Made by a program: the position numbers and the translations under genes | Virus record (IMG/VR): IMGVR_UViG_3300025162_000043 | Span: 1 to 64,000 of that record | DNA from: a virus | DNA length: 64,000 nucleotides | Reading direction: 5' to 3' (one strand) | The notes under the pieces: generated by a model | Told to the model about the DNA's origin: nothing | The model's database searches: none | Seen by the model: the letters and a program-made list of their open reading frames with translations, nothing else | Shown: positions 35,550 to 57,269 of the stretch, piece by piece | Numbering within the stretch: the first letter of the stretch is position 1 | How the letters are laid out: each line of letters opens with the position of its first letter

Positions 35550-35761
35550 ACTTGCCACTAAGATCGCACAACCAAGCTCAATTGTCAAAAAGTATTTGAA
35601 ACTACTTTTTGCGCCAGCGAGGGAGGGAAGAAATACTGGCCAGTAAATGATTCGGTGAAACGAGGGCAAAAAAAGAAATACTGGCCAGTAAATGGTTCGG
35701 TGAAACGAGGGCAGGAAAAGGCTCCCGGGAGCAATTCCCGGGAGCGTGAGATTAGGAATCG

Positions 35762-36136
35762 TTATGCTTCGTTGGGATCGCTAGGCCATCCCTGAATTGC
35801 ATTGGCCGGGAGCAGCCAAGTGCAATTGCCCTGCCCCGGACCGCTAACATAGGTTCGGAGCGTGCGCCCAAAGTAGGTCACGCGGTTGGCAGACCCATCT
35901 GCCGGCTTATAGCTGATGGTGCAGACCATCTTGACCTGCGCCTTGCCATCGGCAATGGCTTTGTTCAACCGGCTAACGGTCACGCTTCGGGTCTTGCCGA
36001 CCTGCACGCCAACGGCAACGGCAACCGCGTCAAGTTCCTCCGTGGACATAGACGCAATAAGGACGGATGCGGCAGCAGGCTTGCTGGTTTCAGGGGCAGC
36101 GGCAATGATGTTTTCGGCAGTATTTTCAGTATTCAT
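35762..36136 (-). CDS. Hypothetical protein
   Basis: ORF between promoter block and terminator hairpin at 35721-35745. Confidence 0.65.
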   Translation of the reverse strand: MNTENTAENIIAAAPETSKPAAASVLIASMSTEELDAVAVAVGVQVGKTRSVTVSRLNKAIADGKAQVKMVCTISYKPADGSANRVTYFGRTLRTYVSGPGQGNCTWLLPANAIQGWPSDPNEA

Positions 36137-36451
36137 TTGATTGTCTTTCCAACACAGTATTTTTCGAGACTTGGCGGGCTTACGTATCCCGCTCTCAACA
36201 TATAGACCATAACACAGGTTCTCTGTTTGTCAAAAAGTATTTGAAACTATTTTTGATCGCTATCGTCCGAGCTGAGGTTCTCCGGCATGGGGGAAGAAAT
36301 ACTGGCCAGTAAATATTCAAAGAAATACTGGCCAGTAATTCTTGCCATGCACAGTAAATGATTCGGTGAGCACAGTATTTAATTCGGTGAGATTTGGGCA
36401 GGGAAAAGGCCCCGGATGTCTGCCTCCGGGGATGAGTGATGATGCTTTCCG

Positions 36452-36709
36452 TTATTTATCAGCGTGCAACGCGATTGAACACCTGACATGGTGCAAATCG
36501 CTTTGATGGGTATATGTCGCGCCATCAATTGACCATGCATACCGGCATCCTTCGTAGCTACCATCGAAACCCCAATAGGTGCCAACTTCTATCACGGTAC
36601 AGGTTACTGCTACACTTATCAGTTTTGATCGCCGACCGTTGCCAGTCCGGTGGTGAACTAAATTTCTAAACTTCATTCCCAGAACAATGGGTGTATCATT
36701 CATGTCCAT
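36452..36709 (-). CDS. Hypothetical protein
   Basis: ORF between repeat blocks. Confidence 0.45.
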   Translation of the reverse strand: MDMNDTPIVLGMKFRNLVHHRTGNGRRSKLISVAVTCTVIEVGTYWGFDGSYEGCRYAWSIDGATYTHQSDLHHVRCSIALHADK

Positions 36710-36960
36710 ATCATACATCATCCAGGTAATTTGTCAAAAAATATTTACAACTACTTTTGATCGCCAACCCGGCTTCCCTGCCTTGACCGAAGAAATACTG
36801 GCCAGTAAATATTCTTATATCGCCTAATGTATTTAGAAATACTGGCCAGTAATTCTTGCGGAGCACAGTATTTAATTCGGTGAAATTTGGGCAGGAAAAA
36901 GCGAAGGACCGTACCATTTCTGGCACGATCCTTGCTCGTGTTGTGTTCTCGAATGGCCAA

Positions 36961-37563
36961 CTAATCGGCTAAAATGGATTCGACTTCGGCCATTTCTGGC
37001 ATTTCAACTACTACGCCAGATGCTCTTAGATAATAGACGTTTTTGAGATTGACGGCAATCACGGAGGGCTTAAAGTCTGGTTTTTCAGTTTCCTTGTAAA
37101 GCCAGGGAGCAACCACTTCATCAAACTCTGGTTCATTGGCTTCATTACAATAGGCACGTGTGGACTTATGCGGGAAGTATTGGAGATAGTATTGACCATC
37201 ACGCTTGGCTTCGTCCTTGTGTTGGACCAACGGAAGATTTTTGCCGTCTATGGTCTTAAGGTGTTCATACCATGTTTCGCCGTTCTGGTACTCAACTTGG
37301 GACAATTCGACGCCAAGCTTAGCAGCAATCCGAGTGCAAACGCTAGTATTATAGTTAGCGTTGACAATGCCAATCTTCCGGGATACCTTATACAAGCCAT
37401 TTTTGGACTTGGCAGATGCTCCCCAGGGGTTTCCTGCCTTGATCTTGACCACTGGCGTTTTGCTAAGGATAGCGACAAACCGGCAAGCTGTTCCATTGGT
37501 CTTGATAAAACCGAGCATCTCTAACACGGATACCATTTGAACCACATTTTTCTTGTCTAACAT
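36961..37563 (-). CDS. Phage hypothetical protein
   Basis: 200-aa ORF between repeat blocks. Confidence 0.7.
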   Translation of the reverse strand: MLDKKNVVQMVSVLEMLGFIKTNGTACRFVAILSKTPVVKIKAGNPWGASAKSKNGLYKVSRKIGIVNANYNTSVCTRIAAKLGVELSQVEYQNGETWYEHLKTIDGKNLPLVQHKDEAKRDGQYYLQYFPHKSTRAYCNEANEPEFDEVVAPWLYKETEKPDFKPSVIAVNLKNVYYLRASGVVVEMPEMAEVESILAD

Positions 37564-37862
37564 ATTTTTACTTTCGAGTTAACACTAGAGAGCGTGTTGC
37601 TCTCTTACACCAACACCATACCACAGGTTCTCTGTTTGTCAAAAAGTATTTGAAACTATTTTTGATCGCTATCGTCCGAGCTGAGGTTCCCCGGCATGGG
37701 GAAGAAATACTGGCCAGTAATTCTTAATTATATTATTCCACGGGTATTATATTAAGAAATGTTTACTGGCCAGTAATTCTTACGATGCACAGTAAATGAT
37801 TCGGTGAGAAGTACAAAAAAAAGGCCCGAGGTTTATACCCCGGGCGTGATCGACCAGATAAT

Positions 37863-38900
37863 TTATGCGGTAGTATTCGCCAATAGCTGTTTGCCTAAGT
37901 CAACACAACCGTTGAATGATTCGTCATCATCATCCCTAGTAACCAATCGCCAAAAATCGGCTTTAGATTGCTGCCCCGAACCGTATTCGGAGGAAAGGAA
38001 TTGACGCATTGGATTGGTGTCTTTGCCACTAGAGTAATGCGTATAGTAATCAGTCACCGCTGAAAATGCGTCGGCACGAGTACTACCGCCATTCCCCTTG
38101 CCAGACTCATAAAGGTTTACAAGTTGCAATATAGTATTGTTTGCCCGAGTGGAAAGACCTTTTTCCACGGTCTTTGCATCGGTTATTCTACGCCCGAGGA
38201 AGCCAGCAAAGAGATTTGTAGCGACTGGACTAGACAACGGCACTTGGCTTAGTTTTTGAAATTCAAGTTGAAATTCAGCTTGAACGCCAATTGCCTTATC
38301 GATCAATTTCGCCATCTCTGGCAACCGCATGATTGCGTTTTTTGTGTGGCGCTGGCGGATACGAATATCATCGGAATTATCGGAATGTTTATTTTCCACG
38401 CTAAACAGATTGGAAGAAAATGTATTGTCGCAAACCGTGCATGTATTACTAGTATTGACCCACAACACCGAGGATTTATCGTGTCCGTTGCCGAAATTGA
38501 GGTAGGCGGAGAATGAACGACCGCCAGCGACAAATGCTTCCATACCATTTAGCTTAGTGGAAACAAAGACCCTGCCCCTGTTGCGGACACTTCCCACGGA
38601 AACAATTTCATGCGAAGTTCCGGCGATACTAGCCCTGACCAGTTCAAGGAAGGATTTGTTGTCAACCGGCTTGAAAGTTTCGGGGTTGTAGGGTTGCCCT
38701 ATTTCAACGTCGGGAATGTCAGAGCATTCAAGGACTGCCCATTTCGATGGTTTCCCACGTTTTTCCAGGAGAATGGGTTGCACATCCCATTCTGTTAGCC
38801 AATTATCTTCTAACGTGATAACTGGCTTGATCTTAGTAAGACCGTGCCATGCCTGTTGAATACCTTGCTGTTGATCGTTCTGTTCTATTCTATGAGCCAT
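37863..38900 (-). CDS. DUF932-family protein
   Basis: AWHGL, GSVRNRGRVF, NGHDKS, VCDNT, RHTKN, AFSAVTDYYTH. Confidence 0.85.
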   Translation of the reverse strand: MAHRIEQNDQQQGIQQAWHGLTKIKPVITLEDNWLTEWDVQPILLEKRGKPSKWAVLECSDIPDVEIGQPYNPETFKPVDNKSFLELVRASIAGTSHEIVSVGSVRNRGRVFVSTKLNGMEAFVAGGRSFSAYLNFGNGHDKSSVLWVNTSNTCTVCDNTFSSNLFSVENKHSDNSDDIRIRQRHTKNAIMRLPEMAKLIDKAIGVQAEFQLEFQKLSQVPLSSPVATNLFAGFLGRRITDAKTVEKGLSTRANNTILQLVNLYESGKGNGGSTRADAFSAVTDYYTHYSSGKDTNPMRQFLSSEYGSGQQSKADFWRLVTRDDDDESFNGCVDLGKQLLANTTA

Positions 38901-39300
38901 ATTTTGATTCTTTCAATTTAATTGTTTTTTACTCTAACAATTACACACTACATCTAAACAGGAAAAAGTCAAATTGTTTTTGATTTATTTTGGATTTATT
39001 TGATGCACTAAAAAGAATTTAAGCACCGACGGCAGAGAGCGGCGGAGGCCGAAGAAATACTGGCCAGTATTTCTTATACTATATTTCAATAGTATTCCGC
39101 CCGTTATTATATTAAGAATTTGAAGAAATACTGGCCAGTAAATATTCAAAGAAATACTGGCCAGTAATTCTTACGATGCACAGTAAATGATTCGGTGAGA
39201 ATAGTATTTAATTCGGTGAGCGAAGGATGAAAAACAAAAATGCCTCTGGTTCCGACCAGAGGCACCTATACAATATGAATATAGAACCGCCAAAGAAATC

Positions 39301-40014
39301 TTACATTTTCACAGTCTCTTGTTCTCCAACATGGAGGACTTCTGTTTTATATTCTTCTGATTGACTGCAATAACCACCTTCATAATGCCCATAGTAAACA
39401 TTCTGAGGATCAAAGATTGTTCCGAGTTTTACTTTTTTGCATTCACATGCATAAAGATTGCCCCGAGGAGTACAGAACAATCCACCACAGCAACCAGCTT
39501 TTTGACTGCGATTGCCCCAGTTTTTAGCCCTGCCCATTGCTTGAACATAAGTTATTTCGCCATTTATGTCCCTGCAATCGTATTCATTCTGAAAGTTAGA
39601 CGCATATAAATCTTTTTTAGGGCGTTGAAATGCTTTGCGTACTTTATCAGTAACCATACTTTTATCATGGTATTGATCTTGAGATAAACGACACCCAATA
39701 ACTCCGCGCTCTGCCAAGTGTGCAAGCGTAAGAGAAACATTCTCATTGGTGCCGTTAGTTACCATAAACACAGCAGGAGACCCCAGACTATTGGATTGGG
39801 ATGCTAATTCCCATACAGCATACATAAGGAATTCCTGAAAAAGTGGATGCAAAGTAGGTTCTCCGCCTCCAATAGTAATTGAACAATCCTGATCGGAGAC
39901 AAGTTTAATTGCCGCGTGGAAAGTTTCCCTGCTCATATCGGTTCCCTTGGCAGTGCAAGCAAAACAGCAGTGACTGCAAGTCATATTACATTTTGTCGAA
40001 ATCTGTATATACAT
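39301..40014 (-). CDS. Radical SAM protein
   Basis: CNMTCSHC, GGGEPTLHP, VTNG. Confidence 0.88.
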   Translation of the reverse strand: MYIQISTKCNMTCSHCCFACTAKGTDMSRETFHAAIKLVSDQDCSITIGGGEPTLHPLFQEFLMYAVWELASQSNSLGSPAVFMVTNGTNENVSLTLAHLAERGVIGCRLSQDQYHDKSMVTDKVRKAFQRPKKDLYASNFQNEYDCRDINGEITYVQAMGRAKNWGNRSQKAGCCGGLFCTPRGNLYACECKKVKLGTIFDPQNVYYGHYEGGYCSQSEEYKTEVLHVGEQETVKM

Positions 40015-40050
40015 ATATCGTCTCCTACATTAACACAGTCTATCCTGTTG

Positions 40051-43000
40051 TCAAATGGTTATTCCTGAAAGTTTGTTCACGATTGAATGCTCTGCACAGA
40101 CAGGGAATTCCAATCCGTTTGTTTCCCGTCCTTCTGCTTGTTCCAGGAGGTTCCGCAAGTGAGCATCATTTGACACACAAGAATAAGACAGCGTAGAATA
40201 CAATGACCCTGGCTTAGGTGGAGCGTATGGAGTCCAACCGTCCAAATAGCTTTGCATCCATTCTGGCAATTTATCACATTGATTCCAATCTTCATTGCAC
40301 TTTGTTTTGAATTCCGCATTGGCAATATCCCAGAGACGATCAAGGATTTGATCGTTTGGCATGAATTCAAACTTATTCAAGTATGCTTGTGCAAGCTCGT
40401 CTATTTGATTAGTTCGGAATAAAATTGCGGCGAAGTAATTCATTAACGGTTGTGATTCAATTTTTTGTTTCATATTGTATTAACACCTTACACCATAAGC
40501 ATATAAATGTCAAACGGAATTTTCAAATATCTTTTAGGCACCGCCGACGAAGATCATACGAAGAAATACTGGACATTATTTCTTGGTGGAACCGTGAGCA
40601 TCCTATGAACATCCTGTGAGCATCCTATGAGCATAGCAGAATAATTACTGGACATTATTTCTTGTCTGAGCACAGTAAATGATTCGGTGAGAAGTACAGA
40701 AAAAAGCCCCAGCATTGAATGCTAGGGCCACATGGATTATTTATATTGTATATTAGTATTTCATATTATTTTATTGTGTTATAGTTTAGTCATTCGTCAG
40801 AGAAGAGGCGAGAAATTCTCGTGATATTCAGCTATGCAAAAAGATGTCATATCATTCAACTTTGCATATCCTCGTTCATCAAGATCAAGGGCACCGCTGA
40901 AAAGTGATTGAAACTTGTCAAGAGCAGTTTTAAAGTCACATGGAGCAGATTCGGCTAAAACTTTGTTGGCTCCATATTCTAACCGAATTAAAGCATATCG
41001 TTTCATACTGTTGTAAACTCTATCATTGTTCCCGTATGTCATATCTATTACACCATAACATACTCCTGTAAAATGTCAAAAAGTTTCTTCAAATATCTTT
41101 TATACACCACCGACGAAGATCAGGCGAAGAAATACTGGCCAGTAATTCTATATCATAGATATACATTTACTGGATATTATTTCTTGCCAGGCACAGTAAA
41201 TGATTCGGTGAGAAGTACAAAAAAAGCCCCCAGCTTAAAGAAGCTAGGGGCTTCGCTCACTACAAACCAATCATTGGCGCATTACTTTTTCGCTAAACAG
41301 TTTTTCGGCCAATGTATATTCATCAGGAGCAAGGTCCGCGACATGCAACAACTCATCCCAATTGCGGGCTAAATCATTTTCCGAACCGAGAAAATGGTTA
41401 TATCCGCTATTACCTTTAACTTGTGCGAGAACAAAGCCATCACCTGTTACCACCAAGCTATTAACTTGCGGAGTAACCCATTCTTGCCCGAGAATATAAG
41501 CAACAATGCTACCCATCTTTGGGGTCATAAGCCTAAAGCCTTTGGGATTAAGTTTTTCCACAAGTGTAAATATTGAAGCGGGAAGATTCCAAATTTCTCG
41601 ATATTCATGCAGGACAATTTTCTGACAATCTTTGGGCAATTCAGAAAAAGGAATGCGCGTGCCAAGATAATTTTTGCGACCAATAGCAGGAGCAAATCCT
41701 GCCTTATTCACGTCAACTTGACGCTTGCTTTCACTACGTTCAAAAGTACCTTTAGAATCAAACGGATTCTCCGACATGTAAATCCATAGGAATCCAGTAG
41801 GACCAGTTTTCGTACAACACTGCCGATTCGGGATTGAACGATATTTGCCCGAGTAAATAACAACATATCGCTCATCAGAACCTAAACAACAATTGTCATA
41901 AACTCGAATGTATCTTGGAATGCCTTTAGGCATTAGTGACCAAACTCTATTTGCAGTTTTTTTATTCATAGTAATACCTTACACCTATTTATATTTTTGT
42001 CAACCGATTAGTTAAAGAATCTTGCGCTAGTAACTAGCTGCCGAACAAGACATTTGGCATCCCGTCTGCTACTTGCCCGAACAAAGACCTGAACTGGTTC
42101 AAATTCAGACCAAGCACAATACATGTTGGTTTCTGGAGTGTATCCCCAATACGCCCCGCTTTTATCATAATCTAAATCAATCCATTTAAGTTTTTCCATG
42201 TGCAATTTAATAGGGGCATTAACATCTTGAGGCAAACGAGTTAACCTGCCCATACTTGCGCCGAACATATTACATGCTTTAGGAAGAATTAGTTTCATAT
42301 TATTACCTTAGCATAGTTATTGAAATTGTCAAATATTATCTACAATCTTTTTTATATTGTTTACGCCATTCTACCGGGGAAAGTGTCTGAGTGGTATGTG
42401 GGCGAAATTCTAATTCACCATCTTCCCGCGAGCCAATATAACCATGTTCTGTTTTAGTGGTTGCGGGAATACTGAAATAAGTGTCGGGGATAGTTGCTTT
42501 GCATCTTACTAGTTTACCAGTAACGGAATGAAAAACGATTGCTTGACGAGTGAACATGCCATAATCCCGACATTGTTCCTCAGATCCAATTGAAGTTATA
42601 TTCATGCTTCACACTATACCATAAAATACAAATGTCAAAAACTTTCGTCAAATATCTTTTGGACACCGCCAGCCATACGAAGAAATACTGGCCAGTATTT
42701 CTTTATCATAATATAAGAAATACTGGACATTATTTATTGCCAGACACAGTAAATGATTCGGTGAGAAGTACAAAAAAAAGCCCCCGGGAGTGAGAATCCC
42801 GGGGTATAGCGCCTGGCCAGCGTTATTTAATGGTTAGATGCTGAAATATATTGTGGCATAAGAGGCCTAAGCATTTACAGTTTATTCTGCTGTTCTATCG
42901 GCTACTCTCTATTAGAACCATTCGATGCCACGAAATGTTATTTGCTATCAGTTATTTCGTATTTTTCAATGTCCAATGTTTCAATGTTTACTTCGTCATA

Positions 43001-43659: not shown

Positions 43660-43907
43660 TACCAATACATTAGCACACAAAAGGAATTTGTCAAAAAGTT
43701 TCTTCAAATATCTTTTAGGCACCGCCAGCCATACGAAGAAATACTGGCCATTAATTCTGCGTTATGAGAGAAGAATTACTGGACATTATTTCTTGGGATG
43801 ACTCGGTGAAACGCAGTATTTGATTCGGTGAAGTTGAGTAAATGATTCGGTGATAAAAACTTTGAAAAAGAATTTGACATCTTCATTTCGTGTGTTATGG
43901 TATAAGT

Positions 43908-46277
43908 ATGATAAATAAAAATCTTTGTGGTAAAATGAGAACGAAAGACAATCCTTATGAAGTCTGGCAATCCCTTGATGGGAGTTGGACATGGAAAGTT
44001 TTGAAAAAGTATCAAACTCCCGATAAAGAAATGAGCAATTCATTCGCTCGGTGGTTCTGTTATGTGACATCTCCCTTCTGTCCGTTCGGTGAAATGGGAG
44101 ATACTTACATTAATGAAATTAAAAGTCAAGCCGTCAAAATCTTCATTTGACAATTCGGTGAAACGTGCTAGGTTAAATATATGAACGCTAAACAATTCCG
44201 AATCGTAAAACTTGCCGTAGTGGTAAGAGAAAAAGATGCTGAATCAATTGCCGACCAACTGTGCAATATTTCATGCGACTTTGGCATCTATACTATGAGT
44301 GCCACGGAGAGCATTCCTACTCATGCAGAATGGAAAGAGATATTAGAGAACGTGCCTGAAGAAATACTCGGTGAAACAGATGAACAACAACGGCGGGATG
44401 AAAAGCATGGGCTTTATGGTGATAAACAAGATATTAGTAATTAACAATTAAACAAAACAAAATAAAATGAACGCAAAAACAGCAACGAAACTAAATGAAT
44501 TGCAAAATGCAGCAATTCCATTGGCCCTGGTAATCAATAGCCGGACACTTTGCATCCTCACTGGCAAAGTACATAAGTCAACAGCCAAGGCAATAACTGC
44601 CGCATTGACTAGAGTGCTTCCCGCAACAATTGCCAATCGGATTATCTATGGCGCAAAGCATCGGGAATTTGTAGCGTTGCCCGAAGTCGTTGAAATGTCG
44701 TGCCCTATGTTTTACTGGCTAACTTCTGAAGATACATACAAATTGGCACTGCCAGAGATTACTGCCATAATCAATCAACAGAATACGGAAACCCTCAATG
44801 CCTATGAAACATACAGACTGGCGTGTGAACAGGGAGTAGCCGTACCCCCTGAGAAATAACTATCAACTACAACCCCAGGGCTAAAACCCTTGGGGTTTCC
44901 CTCCTTCAAAATATGAAACAAGTAACTTGTAAATCTGGATTAAAAGGATGGCAGGGCCATTTGCGAGAGAATTATGCATCCTTCAATGAGTTTGAATATT
45001 TCTCGGAGCAAAATGGACTTCATGCCAGGCTTGGGTATAAAACCGCTTTAGCGGCTTGGCACAATAATCCAAAAATTCAAGGCTCGGTGAATCCCAGTGA
45101 TTATCGGAGGGTTCGGTGAAAACAATATACTTTCAATTAACTCTCAATGTTGCATTTGACCCGAATGGAACTACTCCTGCTGAATTGAAAGCAAATCTAT
45201 TACAAGTTATTAAGGATGCCACAAGTAACGGCACACTGACAGGAGAGACCCCCGCAACCGTGAAGCAGTATGCTGTTTCGGTGAATCAACTTAAAAAATG
45301 ATGTTATGTCATATTTTGCCCATCTTAAAGCGAACTGGAAAGTTGCCGTGAAATGTTTGGCTTTATCCACCTTTCATTTTATTCATGGTATTGTTCCTTG
45401 CAAATATACCGAGCATGAATATTATGGGTTTAATTTCAAAAAAGATAGTTGACATTCTTCCCCCGAACTGTTATTCTTAGTGGCATGAAAAACAAATGGA
45501 TATTAAGAAATAGAATGTCAACACAGGAATTTGATAGTTTCCCCTATGCTTTCCGTAATATGTTCGCTATTGTGAAAAAGAGTGCAGAGACAGGAAAGCT
45601 AGAGGAAACAATTAAAAGCATAAGAATCATTAGTCCTCAAAAAGATAGTTATGGAGACCCACGAAAATATAACTATACTGCCGCGTGTGAAATGGCTAAA
45701 GCAAGCGGACTTCTGAGTTCTGATGATCAAATCAATTCAAAGGAATTCAAACGAAAATGAAACAAATCACTTAACGTGAACTAAAATTTTATCCATTGCC
45801 CCGCTTATGCGGGGTTTTTTATTGCCCACCGAATATAAGAAATACTGGCCAGTAAATTTTATTTCAAACGCACTTGACATTTTCCGAAAATGTGGTTTAT
45901 TCGTGCTATGACAAAAATTGAAGCCATAGCATATCTTCGCAAGAAAGTACTTTTGGAAAAGAAAGCTGCACTCAAAGAACAATTCAATGTTGCTCGGCGG
46001 GAAACCGAAGAAACAATGAGAGAACTTGAAGAAATAGAGAAAAAGAATTTGACAAATCAAGAAGATGATATAAAATAATAATATGACTAACAAAAAAAGA
46101 AATTCATTGCCGACGGTGAAACAATCCATTGCTCACATTGAAGCTACAGACTATAAGTTAATGCACCGCAAACGAGGATTGTATATCTTTCGCAGTGAGA
46201 CCCGTCCATTACATGCCAGAGAATTAGCATTCACCATGCGAGAATTGCGGGATGCTCACCGAGGAATTGGATTTTAA
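43908..46277 (+). CDS. Plus-strand series of small hypothetical genes (43908-44150, 44181-44444, 44467-44859, 44913-45119, 45116-45301, 45485-45760, 45908-46078, 46083-46277)
   Basis: ORF track; several leaderless promoters; terminator at 45798-45822. Confidence 0.65.
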
Positions 46278-48576
46278 GACACAATTTCGTAAGCATCTTT
46301 CGGCAATCCATAATAAGTATCCCCGTCATAGGTTTCAAAGAAAACAGGATTCAACGTCTCTACGTTGAGTTCCTGCCATTTTCGTAAGGTAATATCCCAT
46401 GTCTCATCCAATTTCGGTTTGTACACCTCAACCAATATATCTCTGAGAATTCTTATTTTAGTCATATTGATATATACTGGCCAGTAAATGTTTACGTATC
46501 CATTTTCGGTGAGTAAACAAAAAAAGACCCCATCACTTGATGGAGTCTTCGGCAATAAAAAGAAACTATTTAGAAATTGGACGAGTAAGTATGATTATAC
46601 GAAAGACTGTTTCGCCCTCAAGGAGTAATTCCTGATTATCATTGATAAGTTGTACAATCTTTTTACCTTCAATCAAATCACCCTTTTTAATCATCTTGTT
46701 CTCATCGTATGTCATTTCTACACTGGGCACCCAAATTTGAGTTAGTTTCATATTTTTCCTTTCGTTGCGGAAACCCCGATGGCTTTAGCCTCGGGGAGGA
46801 GCAACGAAATATAATTAATAATTTCTGTTGACATTCTTCTTAATTCCTGTTATACATATCACAGTTCTTTGATACATGGTTTGGATAGTAGAAAATAATT
46901 GCTTCTATCCAGTAAAATCAATCAAGCATCGTTTTGTGAATAGACCAGAAGGCACTCCGCTTGCGGAGGAACCGTTATGTAGGGTCTTTGACTCACAATC
47001 AACATCCTCCTCATTATCCGTTAAGGATAAACTGGAAGGCAGGCCACGGTCAATTGGCCAACCGTCTGTAAATCTTTCTTGAATTATGTTAAGCATAAGC
47101 ATTAGAGTCTGGCAAGCCCCGACCCTTCAGGGTCGCGGGTAGTTGACATTTTTACACCCTTACCCACCAATTGTAATGCATCATCGCTTTCAATGGCGAT
47201 CAATGTCCAATCGCATATATCCCCGCCAGTATCACTAAGACCATCAAGATCCCGCAATCGGAAATACTCCATGTCAAAACAAGGATGCTCCATTGCAATT
47301 CTACGAATGGATTTTAATGCTTTTATCATCTCAGCTTCGGCAGATAGATTTGTCATAATTCAGTATATTCCACCGAGACAGAGGAAGGAGTAGCTAAATA
47401 TGGAGAAGCACAATATTTCTTCTTAGCTTTCTTCTCAGCCGCATTGTGAGAGCCAGCTTTGATATATCCCCTCTCAAGCCCATTTACATAAACAATAAAG
47501 GTTTTCATATTATTTTTAATCGCCGCTGTCAATTTTGATATATGCCTCTGCAAGATAGATATAACGACATCCTTCTACCTTAGTGAATGCCCCAAGACTA
47601 CAGCCAGCATTCCCCTTTGGTAACATTTTGGCAATCTCACTTCTCCATTGCAAGGAAGTACGAGACGAAACATTGTCATAAGTGGTATCATCTGGATTGC
47701 CTTTAACATATACCAAGTAATTGAAATGGTCATAAGACCGACCAAGCGGTTTACTTCCATTCTCAACGATTGCTATGTGAATAGACTCAAGGTTAATTGT
47801 CATATTGTTATTTAATCTACAAATTCATGATCGGCAAATACTTTTTCAATAGGTTTCAGCTCTGCCTTTGCTTTTGGTTCTGGACTTTTTGTGGCGAACA
47901 ATCCTACTCTCCATCCTAATTTTAACAATGCCTTATCAAGTGCATCGTCATAATCATATGCTTCCACTTCAAAAGAATTGTTATTGTCTTTATAGTTATA
48001 TACAGTAAATGTTCTCATATCTATACAATACACCGCTTGCCTAAATTGTCAAATTCTTTTTCTGATTATTTTTATCGTTCGGGCCAACCATTGAGGATGA
48101 CAGCCACAATCATAATAAGGATAGCCACAACGAGGACAACATTCCCCACAAATTCTTATGTGAGTCATAAATGAGTCAGTTACTTTATCTCCTTCGGGAA
48201 ACATAGATATACGTCTCCATCGGTATTTCTAACAATAAAAGAATTGTCATTGGGAAGATATACAATTTCAGAAATAGTAATAACATCACCCGTACTAATT
48301 GTAATTTCATCTCCTGGCTTCAGATTCTTTCTCCAATCTTTACAATTGTCTGAAACCGTTGAATTCTTAGCTGTCTTTATTTTCATATTGTTGACTCAAC
48401 GCCTGATATATTTTTCGGGTATATTCCGCTAAATTCATAAATTGTTCTTCCGTATAAGCCATAGACTTCTCTTCTATTTCTCTTTGTTTATTCTCCGCAA
48501 TCATAGCCTGCATCTGACATTCAGAATAAAATAAAAGTTCTGCTATGGCCATCTCGGTTGTATTGTCTATAATCAT
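46274..48576 (-). CDS. Series of small hypothetical genes (46274-46465, 46566-46751, 47102-47356, 47353-47508, 47516-47803, 47812-48018, 48180-48386, 48367-48576)
   Basis: ORF track; duplicated 45-nt promoter at ~48015 and ~48573. Confidence 0.55.
46752..47147 (+). mobile_element. Second copy of the 396-nt promoter+omegaRNA cassette
   Basis: Near-identical to 8396-8791; after TTCAT; ends GTAGTTGAC. Confidence 0.88.
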
Positions 48577-48670
48577 ATCTATACAATACACCGCTTGCCT
48601 AAATTGTCAAATTCTTTCTCCGATTATTTTCTATTTGACATTCTCAATAGGTGTGCTATATTTATCGTAT

Positions 48671-49407
48671 ATGGCAAAAATAGATTCAAATAATACGTTC
48701 GGTGATTTTTCAAAACGAATTAACCTGTCTTCAGATAGACATAACCTTAAACCTATAGCACCATCACTAACCTTTGAAAAATACCTTATACAATCTATTA
48801 AAGAAGGTAACGCTATACTTGAAGCCGAAAAGAATTCGGTGAATACACCGCCTAAACCTGACTCGGTGAAGTTACCTACCAACCCCTGCACTGAAGTAAG
48901 TAAAAATGCCTACACAAGAGCAAGAATTGAAATCCTGGCAAAGTTAACCCCAATAGCCCGAGGTGTTATTGAAAAAATGGAACGAAATGAATTGGAAAAA
49001 GATAATCGTTACGATAGATTCTGCCAAGCTATCGCCATACTCGGAGATAAATTAAGTGAACAAAAATAGTTATGTTATACATTGACCCATCAAAATTACT
49101 CAGTCGTAAATTCTACGTCCATGACTCAAAAATCATTTATACTGCAATCGGATATGGCCAAAATGAAACCGCATTCATTGTAGGAGAATACCCAGACCCA
49201 GGCTATTTAGCCAAATATAACCGTCTCGTAACCCATAAACTAACCGATTGCAAATTCACTGACTTTGTGCCATCAGCAGTATCTTCACCTTCACCACCAC
49301 CGCCAATTCCACCTTCATGGGATACAGATTCAATTGCACCACCACCGTATCCACCACCACCAATTCCACCTTCATGGGATACAGATTCAATTGCAACTGT
49401 TCCATAG
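48671..49407 (+). CDS. Two hypothetical genes (48671-49069; 49072-49407 with a duplicated Pro-rich tail)
   Basis: TTGACA promoter; PPPIPPSWDTDSIA occurs twice. Confidence 0.6.
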
Positions 49408-49596
49408 CTTTCATTGCAATTGCAACAAACCTAACCCCTTGACCGTTCAAGGGGTTTTTTAATGCCATTGGCTATAAGAAATACTGGCCAGTAAATCTAT
49501 TCTAACTATATGATTCATATCAAGACAGGAAAAAACGGCAGGAACCCCCTGCCGCCAATATGACTAACACCACACCTTAAGGCTTCCAAAATTTAT

Positions 49597-50143: not shown

Positions 50144-51127
50144 TTAACCTTCTTCTAAATTTGTAATCTGTTCCACCAGGTCTTTTATAGTTTTCTCCAA
50201 TTCAACCGCCTCATCTATTTTCTCACAGACAGGACAGTTTTTGCATTCGTAGCAAACTTCTTCGTGATTATGGCAACATAGAGTCATAGTTTTAATCAAC
50301 CAGATTAGGGTTATCTTCGCACTCATGAAGCACAGAATCTTTAAGGCTAAAATAAGCAGTCTTTGCTGCATCATCCAGTGTTTCCCGCTGTTTATCATCC
50401 GAAGCATCGTCGGGAACTTGAACTGTCACAATTGCCGACCAAACATAAGTTGCGGTCAAACTTTTCATGCTCTTATTCATTCGTGCATCCTTTTGAATTG
50501 CTTTAACAAAATTATGTAACTTAGCATAATTACTAGTATTAAAGTCGCCATCACAAAACTTATCTGCCCATTCTTTTGGTGTTTTCATATTTATCACTCT
50601 AACACAACATTGAAATTTGTCAAATGGAATTATCAATCTTTAACGATTTGCTCATCATAAATCCATTGACCGAGTTTGCCGCTCAAGGTTTCCCCAATAT
50701 AACCCTCTTTGGGATTTTCGGGGGTACCCATCATTCGTACTTCCACTATTTTCATTTTTCTGATTACATATTTGCTATCATCAATCCCATGTATGGGATA
50801 TACTTTATACCGAACTACATCATTGAGTTTTAGTTTCATAATTTTCATGACATTGCAGCAGGATTAAACGATACAACTTTGAATTGCCGTATTCTTGACT
50901 GGCAGAACTTCTTGAATTGATAGCGGGGATGTTCATTCTTTACGGTTCTCTCCAATCCTGTAATATAACTCCCCGTTGCTGAAATAAGACGTACAACACG
51001 AAATACAAGTTCCCCCTGTAATTGACGAAGGATAATCAAAAGTGACAAGAGGACTCTTTTCAATTATCCGTGAATTCCTTGAGGCTTTAGCTCTCACATA
51101 ACCAGAAAATACAAACACATTCATCAT
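50144..51127 (-). CDS. Small hypothetical genes (50144-50287, 50292-50588, 50633-50848, 50933-51127)
   Basis: ORF track. Confidence 0.45.
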
Positions 51128-51352
51128 GCCTATATAATAACACAACATTGAAATTTGTCAAATGAAAATAAAAAATATAAAAAGTTGCCGACAGGATTAT
51201 TTGTGTTATAGTTATCCAACATTGACGAAATGAAGTTTTGGTTCATAGTTATTGATTGACACGAAAGCACTACCAATAAAATAATTTCTCAGTTAAGCCC
51301 CCCGGAATTTTGGGTAGTGCCTTCTTCCGAGGGGCATTTTATTTAAGGCACT

Positions 51353-51838
51353 ATGACTAAACCGTTTTTTTTGAAAGTTCCGAGTGATTTACTCGCCCGA
51401 ACTGATATTACATCAACCCGAAAACTAATTCTTTCCTATTTCCAACTTCGCTCAGGTATTAACAACTGGACCTTTAATGCCACTGATATATCCATAACAA
51501 TAGGGATTTGTTATAGAACTGCCAAAAGAGAACTCAAAGACCTTGAATCAAATGGAATAATCAAATGTATAGGTTATTCTTCCAGATGGCAAAAAAGATA
51601 TAAGAAATACATTCTCATAGAACAGGACAAAATGTCCTTTTCCAGAAAGGGACAAAATGTCCCCTCCAGAAAGGGACAAAATGTCCCACTAGAAGAAGTA
51701 CAGAAAAAAGAAGTACCAGAAGTATATAAGAAAGAGAGTACAGAAGTACATAGTACTCCTGGTATTATACAGGAAAACGTAGAAGACATTATTCGGCAGA
51801 TACGATATAACTCCCAATTTCTTGTAACTCGAAAATAA
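51353..51838 (+). CDS. HTH replication-initiator-like protein with intragenic iterons
   Basis: FLKVPSDLLARTDITSTRKLIL + HTH (ATDISITIGICYRTAKRELKDLESNG) + GQNVP repeats. Confidence 0.6.
   Translation: MTKPFFLKVPSDLLARTDITSTRKLILSYFQLRSGINNWTFNATDISITIGICYRTAKRELKDLESNGIIKCIGYSSRWQKRYKKYILIEQDKMSFSRKGQNVPSRKGQNVPLEEVQKKEVPEVYKKESTEVHSTPGIIQENVEDIIRQIRYNSQFLVTRK
51625..51686. repeat. Three iteron-like palindromes GGACAAAATGTCC
   Basis: At 51625, 51650 and 51674. Confidence 0.85.
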
Positions 51839-51841
51839 TCT

Positions 51842-52057
51842 ATGAACTTAATGAATCCTATTGAAATTCAATTAAAACGAAAAGCCAAACGACTTGGGTA
51901 TAGATTGAGACGTATTCCAACAAATGATCCGTGGTATCTTTCAATTGGTCCCTATTACATGGTTAATCGATCTTCCAATAGGGTATATTACAAACGGCTT
52001 GGCTTACACGAAGTATTTGGAATCCTAACCACCATTCAACCTCCCAATAAAAAATAA
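51842..52057 (+). CDS. Hypothetical basic protein
   Basis: ORF track. Confidence 0.5.
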   Translation: MNLMNPIEIQLKRKAKRLGYRLRRIPTNDPWYLSIGPYYMVNRSSNRVYYKRLGLHEVFGILTTIQPPNKK

Positions 52058-52735
52058 ACAAATACTGGCCAGTAATTCTTATACTATATTTCAATAGTAT
52101 TCCGTCCGTTATTATATTAAGAATTTGAAGAAATACTGGACATTAAATATTAATAAATACTGGCCAGTATTTCTCAATATTGGCAGTAAATGATTCGGTG
52201 AAACGGAGTATTTCATTCGGTGAGTACAAAGAAAAACGACGAATGAAATAATTGCATACGTTCTCACGTGCATAAGTGCTTAAGCAACTACTTACATTCG
52301 CCGTTTTAATGAGAGTATGGAGAAAGTTAGCTATCCTTTTATCCATACTCTCTTTCACCGTTACATTAGACAAGAGGGTTTATTTAACCTCTGTTATATT
52401 CTCTTATTTATCAGGGCGAGGGCTTCCACTGAAAACCAGTCTAATTCAACGGGATTTGATTCCCATTCTACTGAGATTCCTCTGTTACTTGTGACTGTGA
52501 CTTAACTTGACTTGTGACCGCACTTGTGAAGGTCACAGTAGAATGTTATCCTTACTGAATAGAATCAAAATTAGATGTTACGGGGGTTTGTGTTTACTGG
52601 ACTCACCTTATCCCGTTTTTGTGGTAGTTGTCCTATTCCTACCCATTAACTAACATCCAAATTCAAAGATCAATCTGCAAAAACACCAACTTTCCGAGTC
52701 ATTTTCAGTTGGTTGACTCATCAACTAGTCATCCG

Positions 52736-53564
52736 CTATTCCTCATTATACAAAAGCATATCCGTATGATCCCCCTTGAACCTTACTCCTGTTTTATCAT
52801 ACGTTTGCTTTGTATTCTCATCATACCGACCCACAGTTGCACCAGATGCATCCTGTACCAATGTCTGAGAACCATACTTAACCTTATACCCTATCGTCCT
52901 ACCACTACCGTCTCTTATTGTCTCTTTCATACCTATACCCTAACACATTCTTGAAAATTGTCAAATTCTTTCTTCATTTTTGTTCAATCAAAATTCTTCC
53001 TCAATCTTCAGAGGAACCAATGAATAAAGCCGAATGACACTTTGACTACCCTCATGATCATACAACGAAATCAGATGGTCACTACTCATAATCGCATTGC
53101 TCAATCCAATCTCAGTGAAAATAACAGAAAACTCCTGCTCATCATCAACCCAATTCATGCGGAGAACTTCGTTATCCTCTTTCCCCGTGATCTCACTCAC
53201 AGTCACCGAATGTAAATAAGGACTGTCATCCACAACTATAACATCGGTGCGATCAATAAAATTTAGTAAATATTTAACTTTCTCAGTATTCATAACACAC
53301 TCTTGATAATTGTCAAATTCTTTCTTCACTTTCTTCGGAAACCCCCCTCTCTCCCGGGGGTATGGGAATATATGTTACTTTATTCTCAATGTCCACAATA
53401 TGGACACCCTCTCCCACCGGTAACTCCCTTGGGGGAAACCACCAAATTTCTTCACCGTAAATGGTTGCTTTATCACGTTGAACCCAGTCTTGGGCAATAT
53501 CACTCCAGAACAGATTCAAGTCATTTTCTCCAACGGGACCAATGATTAAGTATTTAGGCATAAG
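52736..53564 (-). CDS. Three hypothetical genes (52736-52930, 52988-53293, 53313-53564)
   Basis: ORF track with promoters. Confidence 0.55.
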
Positions 53565-54396
53565 TAACCTTGCGAAATATGGAATCATAATTGGCTCGCA
53601 TGGTATCAATTTTCGGAGTAATCTTTACAGCGGGCACACTGACAGTTTTATTTTTAGACTTAGCATAATGACCAAAATAATCAGACTTGTAACCACCTTT
53701 GCCAGACTTAATAATCTTATACCATGCTTTCCCTGCCTCCGAATTTTTAGGCTGTTGGCCATGAATCACAATAGCAAAGTCTTTATCACCCTTCCAACAC
53801 AAACAATCATCATGATCAATCTCAAGATTCAATTTCTCCGCCTCATCCTCCGAAAATACAACCCTCACCGAACGCAACCCCAGTGCATCAATCAATATAT
53901 CATGCGTACCACCACGAGAAGCAACTAACTTCATATTGAAAGGAATTGAATTAAGCCGCTTGGCCCAATACGGCAATGCCTTAGTATAACCATATACTAC
54001 AAATTCAGAATGTTGTTCAGCAAATAATACCCAAGCATCAAAATATGCCTGACTAAAGAAATCACCACTGGAATGCATCCGAACTAACTTGATATTCTCC
54101 TTTCCAAACAAAGAGGATTCAATTAGATTTGCCATTCCGATTGTTGTTTTTGCCTCTTTAATCAATTCAAAATTCCGCCAGCGGGATTTTCTCACGTTCG
54201 GAAAAAGACATTCTGCCCCAGTAGCATAACAACGGAATTTGCAATCCTTCCCATCTTCAATCTTCCCAGTAACTTTATTCACATGACTCCTACAATCCTT
54301 GGCAAAAGGACAACTATATCCCGCAGGCAAAGAAAGAATCGCGGTATCTCTTTCTAACTTAGCATTCCCCAATCCAAAAGTTAATTTGTTAATCAT
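53554..54396 (-). CDS. Gene product 88-like protein (Cys-rich, radical-SAM-related)
   Basis: GNAKL, LPAGYSCPFA..C...CYA, VRMHSSGDF, YGYTK. Confidence 0.75.
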   Translation of the reverse strand: MINKLTFGLGNAKLERDTAILSLPAGYSCPFAKDCRSHVNKVTGKIEDGKDCKFRCYATGAECLFPNVRKSRWRNFELIKEAKTTIGMANLIESSLFGKENIKLVRMHSSGDFFSQAYFDAWVLFAEQHSEFVVYGYTKALPYWAKRLNSIPFNMKLVASRGGTHDILIDALGLRSVRVVFSEDEAEKLNLEIDHDDCLCWKGDKDFAIVIHGQQPKNSEAGKAWYKIIKSGKGGYKSDYFGHYAKSKNKTVSVPAVKITPKIDTMRANYDSIFRKVTYA

Positions 54397-54510
54397 ATTA
54401 TACCCCAACACACAATCGATAATTGTCAAATTCTTTTTATATAAATAATGCTCTCGTCACTGCTATCCTATGAAAAATACAATAACGAGAGCATTCACAA
54501 TCCCACGTTC

Positions 54511-55215
54511 TTAAATGTTTACCAGATTAGTCTCAAGCACAGGAATAGCTTCAGGAGTAGCTTCGGCTTGATTAGTCTCAAACGCAGCAGCAGCCTCAGG
54601 AGCAACTTCAACTTGAACAAGAGTAACTTCAGCAACAATGGCAGGAGTAACGACAGAAACCACTTCAGGCGTAATTGTCACAGCAGGAATGGTCAATGAG
54701 GGGATAATTTCAGGAGTAGCAAGAATAGCATGAATTGCATCAAGCTTATCAGCGGTTGGTGTCTGGCTCTTGCTAATAGGTGTTTTCTCCTTAGCAACCT
54801 TAGTAACCGCAGTAACCGCAGTATCCTTCCCCGCACGAAGACTAAACAGTAAAGCCCTACGGCCAAGCCCCTTCTTGGAATTAGGCTCCGCTGTTATACC
54901 CCGTATGGCAATGATAATACTACGCGGATTTGCCTGCGTTCTATTCGCAGCAATAATACGCTCCCCCTTCTTGTGAAAATACATGTCCCGCTCTATTGCC
55001 TTGCGAAGTGTAAGCATAGAACATAATGGACCTTTCCCAAATGTCTTGCTCTCCGAATCAGTATCAATATCGTTCGCTATCATCCAATCCGTAAATGTCC
55101 ACTCCTTAGACTTGGGAAACTTCGGCGAATACTTTGGACGACCAGGACGATCATATTGCTTCTCAATAATTGCTTTCTTCGCGGCATTTACTTTGTTTTT
55201 ACTATTCTTCTTCAT
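54511..55215 (-). CDS. Basic DNA-binding-like protein with acidic low-complexity tail
   Basis: RPGRPK AT-hook-like motif, EWTFTD, GLGRRALLFS. Confidence 0.5.
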   Translation of the reverse strand: MKKNSKNKVNAAKKAIIEKQYDRPGRPKYSPKFPKSKEWTFTDWMIANDIDTDSESKTFGKGPLCSMLTLRKAIERDMYFHKKGERIIAANRTQANPRSIIIAIRGITAEPNSKKGLGRRALLFSLRAGKDTAVTAVTKVAKEKTPISKSQTPTADKLDAIHAILATPEIIPSLTIPAVTITPEVVSVVTPAIVAEVTLVQVEVAPEAAAAFETNQAEATPEAIPVLETNLVNI

Positions 55216-55328
55216 AACTATTTTTTCTTTCTATCTATTTTTGTTTTTGGCTTAACTATTTTTTTCTTAACTATGTCAATACGTTACTACATGTATATGC
55301 ATCTGTCAAATTCTTTTTTATATTTCTT

Positions 55329-55890
55329 TCACCACTTACAATTCGCAGTTATATACAACGGCGCAATAAATCCTAATGGAGTAAGAATGTTCTCCAAATC
55401 ATCGTAAGTATAATCTACATTCCTTTTCGCCACATCAACGGCAGCATCAACTATTCGGATTGCTTCGTCTGTCTTCATTCCTTGGGGAATAATAAAATGT
55501 AAATCATACTCCCTATCAGAATCTTTGTCTTGTACTGTAATCAATCTCATATTATTTTTCATATTTTGTTTACCAGTGTTAACTTGTTTTCTCTCTTTTG
55601 TATGGTGAAATTGGTATAAAATGCCAAAACAAGTTAACGCTCTCTCAATCAAATTGACTCATTCCCCGTATAGCATCGGGTTGTACCATAGTAAACGGGC
55701 AATATGGCTCTACCCTGCCACAATCTTCCCCCGATCTCCACCACTTAATGTCATAATAAGAAAGAGGTTCTCCCTTCTCATCTTCGTAAGTTACTTCATC
55801 CCCCGCAATAAATTCCTGAGACAAAAGAAATTCTTTCTCAGTGTCAAATGTTTGAACTACAAATCCAATTGTTATTTTTTTAATAATCAT
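55329..55890 (-). CDS. Two hypothetical genes (55329-55562, 55645-55890)
   Basis: ORF track. Confidence 0.55.
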
Positions 55891-56664
55891 ATATGCACTT
55901 TCGCATGTCTTTCGTAATTGTCAAATTCTTTCTCTCTATTTTTCTTTTTCTTTTCTCAACCCCCACCAAAAAACAAATACTGGCCAGTAATTGTTTGAAG
56001 AAATACTGGATAGTATTTGTTTTTTATGCCAGTAAATAAGCATACTTATGTTCGGTGAGAATAGACACATTTATATACGTATATATATGTGTAAAGAATA
56101 TTTACACTTTGTAATGCAAAGTGATTTGCAGCGCAAAGTATATATACCAGTAAATAGTATAGATAACGCTCGGTGAAATTGGGTAAATATATGCTGTTTT
56201 GCTAAGGAATATGCATATTTATCACTCGGTGAGATTGAAATGTATTTATATACGTATTGCTTTCTATTGGAATATATGTGTATGTATTCTTTATATTTCA
56301 TTCAAATTGCTCTGTATCACAGAGTAAATTACAAGAAATATAAAAACTGAGAATTTAACAAGTGAATACGTATTCAAAAATGAATTATAATATATCTATA
56401 CGTTGCATTAGAATTACTGGATAGTAATTATTTCATAAACATTAGAGTTACTGGATAGTATTTGTTTACGCATACCAGTAAATAAGCATACTTTAATTCG
56501 GTGACATTTGCATGGATAGGCGAAAGGAAACTGGAATATGGATATATGCACGTCTATACACCAGTAATAAGCATACTTTAATTCGGTGACATTTGCATGG
56601 ATACAACGTATATTTTACGATGATATCTGGGATATGTATTGGCAAAAAGAAGTAAGGAATAATT

Positions 56665-57123
56665 ATGATTGAAATACAGAAATCTAAAACTGCCGACACT
56701 CGGACTTGTGATTATGTCAATACTAGCAAGTCAACACTTTTGGCATCAAGCCGCCAGCACATTGGGGACATTGCGAAGGCATTGGCGTTCTTCAGCGGCA
56801 AGATGACTGAGGCCGCAGCAGAGCACGACTACGACAAGCTGACAGCAATCGACGGGTTTCATGCCGACTTTGTGACTGGGTTCAAGCAGACTGGATGGTG
56901 GGACAACCACCGAAAGGTCCATCGTCATCATCTTTCCGCTCCTGACGGCGTGCCAGAGAACGTGAACCTGTTGGACGTGTTGGAATACATTTCAGACTGC
57001 GTGATGGCTGGAATGGGACGCAGTGGAAGCGTTTACGAACTAAAGGTTCAAGACGAGTTACTACAGCGTGCTTTCCGAAATACGGTTGAACTTCTGAAGG
57101 CTGAGATTGTGGTAAAGGAATAA
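56665..57123 (+). CDS. HD-superfamily / DUF5662-like protein
   Basis: HIGDI, EHDYDK, HRKVHRHH, LLDVLEYISDC; AAGGA RBS. Confidence 0.6.
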   Translation: MIEIQKSKTADTRTCDYVNTSKSTLLASSRQHIGDIAKALAFFSGKMTEAAAEHDYDKLTAIDGFHADFVTGFKQTGWWDNHRKVHRHHLSAPDGVPENVNLLDVLEYISDCVMAGMGRSGSVYELKVQDELLQRAFRNTVELLKAEIVVKE

Positions 57124-57269
57124 ATAATATAAAGTAATTATTTCATACACCAGTAATTAGTATTAAGAACGTTCGGTGACATGGATAGAAAGCAGGCACC
57201 GATGGATTAGAATATGGATATATGCATACCTGTATATCAGCACATTAGTATATTCAATGTTCGGTGGGA

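Follow-up and report, generated by a model that had tools for sequence, protein, structure and literature searches.

We examined a 64,000-nucleotide (nt) stretch of virus DNA, positions 1 to 64,000 of IMG/VR record IMGVR_UViG_3300025162_000043 (hereafter, the window), in which the octamer YTCGGTGA recurs predominantly on one strand. The complete virus record is linear, with a length of 78,054 base pairs (bp) and perfect inverted terminal repeats of 4,836 bp. The octamers are concentrated in a domain at approximately 34 to 57 kb, that is, in 22 of the 78 kb of the genome. We find that the one-strand enrichment of this octamer is genuine and that the octamer is conserved among related viral elements from freshwater. 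Three populations of copies can be distinguished: those of a duplicated intergenic module, those in or at plus-strand genes, and those of a direct-repeat array (Table 1).

Sixteen copies belong to the duplicated intergenic module. Read on the gene (minus) strand, the module begins with an intrinsic terminator and its T-run, after which the first octamer, as TCACCGAA, lies at a distance of 6 to 13 nt in 10 of 10 modules. This is followed by TCATTTACTG, one to three palindromes, a conserved block, and a sigma70 promoter (TTGACA-N16-TAnnnT-N6-ATG) that leads into a leaderless gene. All 10 of these modules couple the terminator with a TTGACA-N16-TAnnnT promoter, and a block of ~27 nt is kept at the head of each minus-strand unit, right after the preceding terminator. 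The palindromes are of the TACTGG/CCAGTA type (AGAAATACTGG/CCAGTATTTCT), with a CAGTA half-site after the octamer on the gene strand. A palindrome scan (two mismatches at most) returned 39 matches, all of them within the same domain (35.6 to 56.4 kb). In the divergent control region, three octamers (43802, 43824, and 43846; all module copies) are positioned at −72, −50, and −28 from the −35 box of the plus-strand promoter at 43874, and 115 to 159 nt upstream of the minus-strand promoter at 43694.

Nine copies lie in or at plus-strand genes, one in a promoter spacer and eight within genes. An earlier note on this stretch had listed these copies, and all of them are present, two being displaced by one position (44154 and 44367, not 44155 and 44368). 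The switch of genes to the plus strand that it placed at 43.9 kb is likewise confirmed, with plus-strand octamers continuing beyond it. The third population occupies the array at 56.05 to 57.18 kb, where all six octamers are in direct orientation and flank the plus-strand gene at 56665–57123. Five of the six array copies, as well as one at genome position 64,949, form a long unit, CCAGTAAWT-N13-YTCGGTGA; the copy at 56225 has no CCAGTAAWT half.

Table 1. Octamer-bearing features and the candidate binder gene; coordinates are those of the window.
Feature	Position	Strand	Details
Module, two 45-bp tandem units (palindrome half-site and octamer each)	35629..35745	+	Octamers 35651, 35696; abuts minus-strand terminator 35745-35721
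Module	36295..36431	+	Palindromes 36295, 36321; tandem 18-mers, octamers 36362, 36383; minus-strand terminator 36431-36410
Module	36791..36933	+	Two palindromes; octamer 36876; minus-strand terminator 36933-36904
Module	37703..37845	+	Two palindromes; octamer 37800; GAAGTAC, A8; minus-strand terminator 37845-37824; gap between T-run and octamer 7 nt
Module	39053..39267	+	Three palindromes; octamers 39191, 39212 (21 nt apart); minus-strand terminator 39267-39238
Module	40562..40729	+	Two palindrome variants; octamer 40683; minus-strand terminator 40729-40705
Module	41128..41254	+	Two palindromes; octamer 41204; minus-strand terminator 41254-41223
Module	42681..42804	+	Two palindromes; octamer 42757; minus-strand terminator 42804-42782
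Divergent control region	43737..43901	+	Two palindromes; octamers 43802, 43824, 43846 at 22-nt phase
Module	46470..46550	+	Palindrome; octamer 46505; minus-strand terminator 46550-46523; gap between T-run and octamer 6 nt
Palindrome-octamer cluster	52058..52223	+	Three palindromes; octamers 52194, 52216; directly downstream of winged-helix gene
Plus-oriented module paralog	45798..45880	+	Plus-strand terminator, T-run, mirrored octamer CCACCGAA (7/8), palindrome 45838, TTGACA
Second plus-oriented module paralog	49440-49500	+	No octamer, only decayed mirrored CATTGGCT (~3/8)
Long-form array, AT-rich (30% GC), largely non-coding	55973..57179	+	Four palindromes; octamers 56051, 56169, 56225, 56497, 56582, 57172
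Intragenic sense copy (F-G-E)	44085..44092	+	In plus-strand gene 43908-44150
Leaderless promoter TTGACA-N16-TAGGTT-N6-ATG	44147..44183	+	Octamer 44154 in spacer
Intragenic sense copy (L-G-E)	44367..44374	+	Fused to palindrome left arm (GAAGAAATA-CTCGGTGA)
Two copies (45083, 45112) at 3' end of gene 44913-45119	45083..45119	+	One encodes S-V-N; TGA of the other is the stop codon
Intragenic sense copy (S-V-N)	45277..45284	+	CAGTA 11 nt upstream
Leaderless promoter 48635 and gene from 48671	48635..48869	+	Sense copies 48698 (F-G-D), 48835 (S-V-N), 48862 (S-V-K)
Exact copy	46256..46263	-	Just 3' of stop of minus-strand gene ending 46274, converging with plus-strand genes
Sense copy (S-V-T)	53203..53210	-	In minus-strand gene 52988-53329
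Sense copy (S-V-R)	53865..53872	-	In minus-strand gene 53554-54429; not kept in 64%-identical L260 homolog
Leftmost domain copy, role uncertain	34206..34213	+	Antisense at 3' end of minus-strand open reading frame 34187-34384
Three isolated copies outside domain	13980..28719		13987 (-), 18537 (+), 28712 (+); fit chance, ~1.4 per strand
Winged-helix protein, candidate binder	51353..51838	+	Model pLDDT above 90 for residues 11-90

The window contains 39 exact copies of YTCGGTGA, of which the plus strand has 35 and the minus strand 4; dinucleotide shuffles of the window lead one to expect 2.35 ± 1.6 (maximum, 6). The earlier note had counted about 30 plus-strand against about 3 minus-strand copies at 35650–57180, which agrees with the 32 and 3 found here (the latter at 46263, 53210, and 53872). 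Across the whole genome, there are 36 plus-strand and 5 minus-strand copies, with ~1.4 expected per strand; 31 or 32 of the 36 lie at 35.6 to 57.2 kb, and a mirrored set is absent elsewhere, including near the ends. The per-strand comparison with a Markov background that the note had proposed bears out the skew: low-order models expect ~1 copy, and no 8-mer of the genome outside the coding 12-nt tandem repeat at 61 to 62 kb is more strand-skewed than TTCGGTGA (27:4). The strand ratio of CTCGGTGA is 9:1 in the genome. Taking the window together with the six relatives described below, the polarity is 68 to 7.

Enrichment and bias persist when duplicated blocks are masked; their disappearance under such masking was what the earlier note had named as a refutation of its claim. 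With copies grouped when their 25-nt flanks were at least 64% alike, 18 independent plus-strand contexts remain against 5 on the minus strand. Codon shuffling of the plus-strand genes (3.6 kb) yields an expectation of 0.065 sense copies, against 8 observed, and that of the minus-strand genes (13 kb) 0.28, against 2 observed. Ser-Val pairs are encoded as TCG-GTG in 10 of 76 cases, compared with 1.9 expected. One-mismatch variants are no commoner than background: genome-wide, 27 lie on the plus and 29 on the minus strand, and the plus strand of the domain has only 2. The octamer is thus unusually sharp. Intragenic octamers occur in three reading frames. The view that this is an asymmetric signal at the level of DNA, already put forward in the note, is supported by this exactness, by the use of three frames within genes, and by the invariance of the octamer in the relatives, which also point to strong selection.

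The octamer can be part of a larger composite site. In 26 of 67 copies, it forms the 3′ part of an 18-mer, CAGTAwwTGA-TTCGGTGA, whose CAGTA is a half-site of the TACTGG/CCAGTA palindromes; the long form equals this short form plus 11 bp. Distances between an upstream CAKTA and the octamer peak at 10 to 11 bp (26 cases), 20 to 22 bp (8 cases), and 29 to 32 bp (13 cases), and seven pairs of tandem octamers are 20 to 22 bp apart. The tandem spacing of 21 to 22 nt described previously is present at 36362/36383, 39191/39212, 43802/43824/43846, and 52194/52216, whereas the copy formerly given at 36405 is not. That CAKTA and the octamer are separated by whole helical turns suggests that a protein or protein pair occupies one face of duplex DNA, and argues against a word that is read on single strands or in RNA.

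We find that octamer orientation is associated with gene orientation, contrary to the claim that the signal ignores it. The 16 module copies follow minus-strand genes, and since the modules are co-oriented with these genes, the plus-strand polarity of their octamers is that of gene orientation. Among 15 intragenic copies, 12 are sense, eight of them in plus-strand genes and four in minus-strand genes (13987, 53210, 53872, and 65677). The three antisense copies (18537 and 28712 in a giant gene; 34206 in a small minus-strand open reading frame, or ORF) match a chance expectation of ~1.2. The well-supported intragenic copies are all sense, and gene orientation is therefore not ignored. One of the relatives, L033, has four module copies on one strand and two intragenic sense copies on the other.

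Six related metagenomic fragments (L109, L100, L260, L033, L018, and L074) were recovered by pattern scans; the phage database returned no match to 12 kb of the window by megablast or to the giant ORF by tblastn. Protein identity to these relatives is 37 to 77%, and their GC content is 36 to 54%. L109 is syntenic with 35 to 42 kb (proteins 53 to 75% identical), L100 with 43.2 to 45.1 kb, and L260 with 46.3 to 55.2 kb, while L033, L018, and L074 are shorter. Both the exact octamer and the order of the module are kept in the relatives, although the flanks have diverged. In particular, the placement of TCACCGAA behind the terminator is kept in L109, L074, L018, and L033, and the promoter-spacer copy (as at 44154) recurs in L100 and L260. 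Gene order in L260 differs, with a DUF932 gene adjoining the homolog of the 54511 gene.

Copies within genes are also found in the relatives. The L100 homolog of gene 44913–45119 has three octamers, and the L260 homolog of the gene from 48671 has one in its promoter spacer and one in the gene. Intragenic copies survive a change of frame, encoding V-R-stop in the window and R-S-V-K in L100. The peptide GSVN is encoded by the octamer in both the window and L100, and by AGC-GTA in homologs from unrelated high-GC phages. This recoding, together with the frame changes and the excess of TCG-GTG among Ser-Val pairs, indicates that selection acts on the nucleotides. The high-GC homologs (L204:16924–17121 and L206:18016–18213) come from phages without the octamer system. 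They are 56% identical to the protein of 44913–45119, share a C-terminal GSVN..RRV motif, and belong to a family without annotation.

A degenerate 18-mer matched mostly chance singles in metagenome and genome contigs; the only true relatives among the matches were L018, L033, L074, L100, and L109, and none was found in the genome contigs. Among viral contigs, the exact 18-mer had no match, the octamer combined with AGTACA recovered no further relative, and the tandem-octamer pattern recovered one relative (L260), its remaining matches being coding or iteron repeats of unrelated contigs. Single proteins used as locus queries returned nothing, and an alignment query returned only distant homologs of an N-terminal domain, without the motif. 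Closer homologs (P0007, P0022, P0028, and others) sit on contigs of 18 to 54 kb. One of the unrelated viral contigs (L229; IMGVR_UViG_2864804954_000001) carries, at 8880–9230, five to six 22-bp iterons that begin with TTCGGTGA, adjacent to a DnaA box and with a Rep_3 (WH1+WH2) gene directly downstream. The scan that found this contig selected for tandem octamers, and it thus serves as a precedent only.

Judged from the sequence, there is about an even chance that a sequence-specific protein encoded by the element recognises duplex DNA at a site of which YTCGGTGA is the invariant, asymmetric core. The octamer, the CAKTA half-site, and the TACTGG/CCAGTA palindromes would then form one cis-regulatory system, similar to an iteron/operator set or a network of DnaA boxes. 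Such a system might organise the small early or accessory genes of the 22-kb region, which have a promoter each and are mostly leaderless, with dimers binding the palindromes and a monomeric domain binding the asymmetric octamer. The octamer would be used in three settings: directly behind the terminator of a minus-strand unit, where the next unit's operators and promoter follow; in plus-strand genes and within, beside, or shortly past their promoters; and in direct-repeat arrays within an AT-rich, non-coding stretch. The near-uniform polarity would be mostly architectural. That is, modules would follow the minus-strand genes, arrays would consist of direct repeats, and intragenic copies would follow their genes.

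We infer from this arrangement that a polymerase travelling in the sense direction would meet TCACCGAA inside no gene, and only immediately past a terminator. This rule fits a protein-DNA complex with a directional effect on RNA polymerase, a polar roadblock or insulator that would reinforce termination and prevent antisense read-in; a protein bound 6 to 13 nt beyond the T-run might hold the polymerase over the terminator. The octamer-bound protein might be a dedicated insulator that enforces transcription unit by unit, i.e., a one-way barrier to RNA polymerase and the bacterial-virus counterpart of MTERF1, TTF-I, or Tus, but this seems unlikely on the whole. Octamers in plus-strand genes would then stand in the permissive orientation and keep antisense transcription out, and binding to iterons or operators would be a second role of the protein.

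Several observations weigh against a protein recognition site. Bare octamers without informative flanks make up 41 of the 67 copies, which would suit a word read by an enzyme equally well. Octamer density is 15-fold higher in plus-strand genes (2.2 per kb) than in minus-strand genes (0.15 per kb), and both plus-oriented modules carry decayed mirrored octamers. Together with the 68-to-7 polarity, these leave room for a residual, truly global polarity that the recognition-site model accounts for only ad hoc. Placement beside terminators could also reflect mere compact intergenic DNA. The winged-helix protein proposed below as the binder is generic, and L109, L100, and L260 showed no homolog of it. 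Pfam and PHROG searches of ~87 ORFs and phmmer with a Rep_3 protein revealed no Rep_3-type initiator. DnaA-box-like words occur at chance level, with none near the array (55950–56660, 30% GC).

The polarity, the bare copies, the density in plus-strand genes, and the decayed mirrored octamers would all fit a global directional word for a moving machine, such as a Chi-like attenuator of RecBCD/AddAB, a KOPS/SRS word for a translocase, or a loading site for a primase or helicase, of which only the plus-strand copies would function. In line with this, the octamer is exact, with no tolerated mismatch, and minus-strand regions carry octamers only between genes. We nevertheless regard such a word as improbable. 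Octamers are restricted to 22 of 78 kb, with no mirrored population across any candidate origin or near the ends, and they occur with CAKTA at helical-turn distances, in tandem arrays of 21 to 22 bp, and with terminators and promoters at set positions. Each minus-strand copy is either sense or located at the end of a gene, L033 has two of six on the other strand, and in place of the skew reversal at dif or a terminus that marks KOPS and SRS, minus-strand copies are scattered sense intragenic copies. The comparison with Chi, KOPS, or a primase or translocase site drawn in the earlier note is not supported. It is likewise improbable that the octamer is the site of a strand-specific nicking or recombination enzyme, as in interruptions of the T5, tf, or phiKMV type or in exchange at cassette boundaries. 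This would explain an exact one-strand word, and octamers do bound terminator-to-promoter cassettes, in a region whose arrangement differs between relatives (L260). The genome has several HNH or endonuclease genes, and some contigs join different modules (36293/52126 and 36213/37621). However, these joins are at exact repeats and may be assembly ambiguities, genes and a promoter spacer would be odd places for recombination sites, and the helical phasing of CAKTA suggests stable binding rather than cleavage.

Alternatively, the minus-strand sequence GTACTTC-TCACCGAA-TCATTTACTG could be a promoter or terminator of a dedicated RNA polymerase or sigma factor, where it would start or stop the leftward transcription of each unit and give rise to antisense transcripts across the plus-strand genes. 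The conserved block of ~27 nt at the head of each minus-strand unit, exactness of the kind typical of phage-polymerase promoters, and a 4,242–amino acid (aa) ORF that could hide a polymerase are consistent with this, but Pfam and PHROG scans detected no RNA polymerase or sigma factor, a near-consensus sigma70 promoter is already present at every unit, and both the 11-bp longer form and the bare octamers misfit a promoter of fixed geometry. We therefore consider a dedicated polymerase decidedly improbable. A signal in RNA, with UUCGGUGA in sense transcripts bound or cut by a protein or pairing with UCACCGAA in read-through transcripts, is very unlikely. It would account for the sense orientation of 12 of 15 intragenic copies, and an exact 8-mer resembles a pairing seed; yet the 16 copies with the best conservation are on the non-transcribed strand past terminators and have no plus-strand promoter nearby, one copy lies in a promoter spacer, whole-turn phasing is a property of duplex DNA, and there are no Rfam matches. 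Finally, 16 of the 36 plus-strand copies belong to one repeat family, and the octamer might have no function of its own and hitch-hike in duplicated intergenic blocks. This is scarcely credible in view of the 18 contexts that remain after masking, the unique coding copies in three frames, and the invariance of the octamer amid diverging flanks. Further candidates were rejected. Orientation bias of Type III restriction sites predicts avoidance, not a 25-fold excess, and the spacing or counts misfit sigma54, ECF-sigma, and Bacteroidota-type promoters, Shine-Dalgarno-like sequences, UUCG tetraloops, and IHF or DnaA boxes.

The protein recognition site that we prefer has close parallels in the iterons and operators of Rep proteins. 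Both here and in pPS10 RepA and F RepE, direct repeats of ~22 bp accompany an inverted-repeat operator that shares their half-site (PMC4857107). In the present element, CAGTA occurs in the 18-mer as well as in the palindrome, the arrays lie in an AT-rich stretch, and tandem direct repeats of the 17- to 22-bp type are present. The differences are that a single winged-helix protein takes the place of a two-domain Rep_3- or RepE-like initiator, which was not detectable here, that DnaA boxes are missing, and that the sites are spread over 22 kb, at nearly every unit boundary and in genes, rather than gathered at one origin. DnaA boxes themselves are asymmetric 8- to 9-mers recognised by a monomeric binding domain and are used in arrays, promoters, and transcribed DNA, with direction-dependent effects. 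Schaefer and Messer (1989) reportedly found that DnaA-box complexes block RNA polymerase in one orientation. The octamer resembles such a network in that one short asymmetric word is reused in arrays, promoters, and genes; it differs in the word itself, in the much stronger strand uniformity, and in that no DnaA-like protein was found.

Among phages, the PeSL cassettes of T4-type phages are comparable in that they also repeat units of terminator and early promoter between small, variable, mostly unknown genes of a plastic region, with relatives differing by rearrangements at PeSLs (PMC2839356, PMC4122927). A PeSL, however, consists of a stem-loop and a promoter, whereas the units described here have an invariant octamer and one to three palindromes in between, and lone octamers exist as well. 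Roadblocks whose effect depends on orientation are documented for Tus, Rap1, dCas9, and MTERF1, and an asymmetric site in fixed orientation just past the end of a unit is common to this element and to Tus-Ter, MTERF1, and Rap1/Reb1 (PMC10310618, PMC13646843). The difference is that here orientation-dependent action would be a prediction from site placement, with the winged-helix protein as candidate binder. To our knowledge, no phage system of polar-roadblock terminators has been described. With Chi, KOPS, and SRS, the octamer has only length and skew in common. Those words are exact, strongly skewed 8-mers that are genome-wide, flip at the origin or terminus, and stand alone; they are recognised while DNA is unwound or translocated. 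The octamer, in contrast, is confined to one region, where its neighbours are fixed and in helical phase and where it goes with terminators and promoters.

A candidate for the octamer binder is the winged-helix protein encoded at 51353–51838, whose gene adjoins the palindrome-octamer cluster at 52058–52223. This protein has weak PHROG matches to three "replication initiation protein" families, and its remote homologs have HTH_36, MarR, or DnaD_N domains. A fold search returned only generic matches of the MarR, ArsR, TubR, and AspA types (E above 0.005). The protein is followed by a short peptide repeat (GQNVPSRK-like), here in two copies; copy number varies among the homologs P0049 to P0052, reaching up to four in P0050.

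The system would illustrate, in compact and sequence-defined form, how a mobile genome connects dozens of independently promoted small early or anti-defence-type genes through a single oriented word. If the octamer is a one-way barrier, or an initiator site whose regulatory influence spreads, it would represent a new type of gene-insulation logic in phages. It would also provide synthetic biology with an 8-bp, highly specific, orientation-dependent part. If it is only a set of operators or iterons, it would still be a well-documented regulon motif in a novel lineage. That lineage is an uncharacterised freshwater virus of 78 kb with 4.8-kb inverted repeats, leaderless sigma70 units, a 4,242-aa orphan protein, and a parS of the chromosomal type.

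The runs listed for the element are DNA runs from freshwater or lakes only, with no RNA run among them. Metagenome contigs aligned to the window represent a near-clonal population, with unitig breaks at repeats and octamers without informative variation; loose contig ends at 52077 correspond to a repeat at 55.99 kb. A literature search for the octamer returned matches to primers only. More than 20 near-consensus promoters (TTGACA-N16-TAnnnT; e.g., at 43694, 43874, 44147, 48052, 48610, and 52964) lie within 36206–59091, with an ATG 5 to 8 nt later, and their mRNAs should therefore be leaderless. In the rest of the genome, the regions upstream of genes are A-rich and lack a Shine-Dalgarno sequence. 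Leaderless promoters and the missing Shine-Dalgarno sequence may be a clue to the host. A TnpB/Cas12f-like gene (32644–33837, minus strand) lies at the left edge of the motif domain; its neighbours in the nearest Atlas clusters are mainly viral and point to no host. GC content at the left end of the domain (34000–38000) is 45 to 47%, compared with 38% genome-wide.

The inverted terminal repeats occupy window positions 1–4836 and genome positions 73219–78054, and the end genes, among them an endonuclease-like ORF at 220–1119, face inward from both termini. None of the ORFs scanned was recognisable as a polymerase, protelomerase, terminase, or capsid gene. A minus-strand cluster (4867–5237), immediately interior to the boundary of the left repeat, encodes Leu-CAA, Gly-TCC, and Gly-CCC tRNAs (ARAGORN), with a fourth tRNA at 5091–5161 identified by Rfam; the Rfam scan detected tRNAs only. 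The 4,242-aa ORF (17105–29833, minus strand) has a strong coding signal and no match in Pfam, PHROG, or the phage database. A perfect 16-bp palindrome of the chromosomal parS type, TGTTCCACGTGGAACA, lies at 59104–59119 (chance expectation, zero matches), just upstream of a DNA methyltransferase gene (58467–59063). At 57617–57665, three to four tandem copies of GGGGTTTAGTATT immediately follow a stem-loop. Approximately 60 tandem 12-nt units (AACTTGTGAANN on the plus strand) occupy 61200–62000 within the minus-strand ORF at 60652–62358, where they encode a 4-residue repeat in a 568-aa protein.

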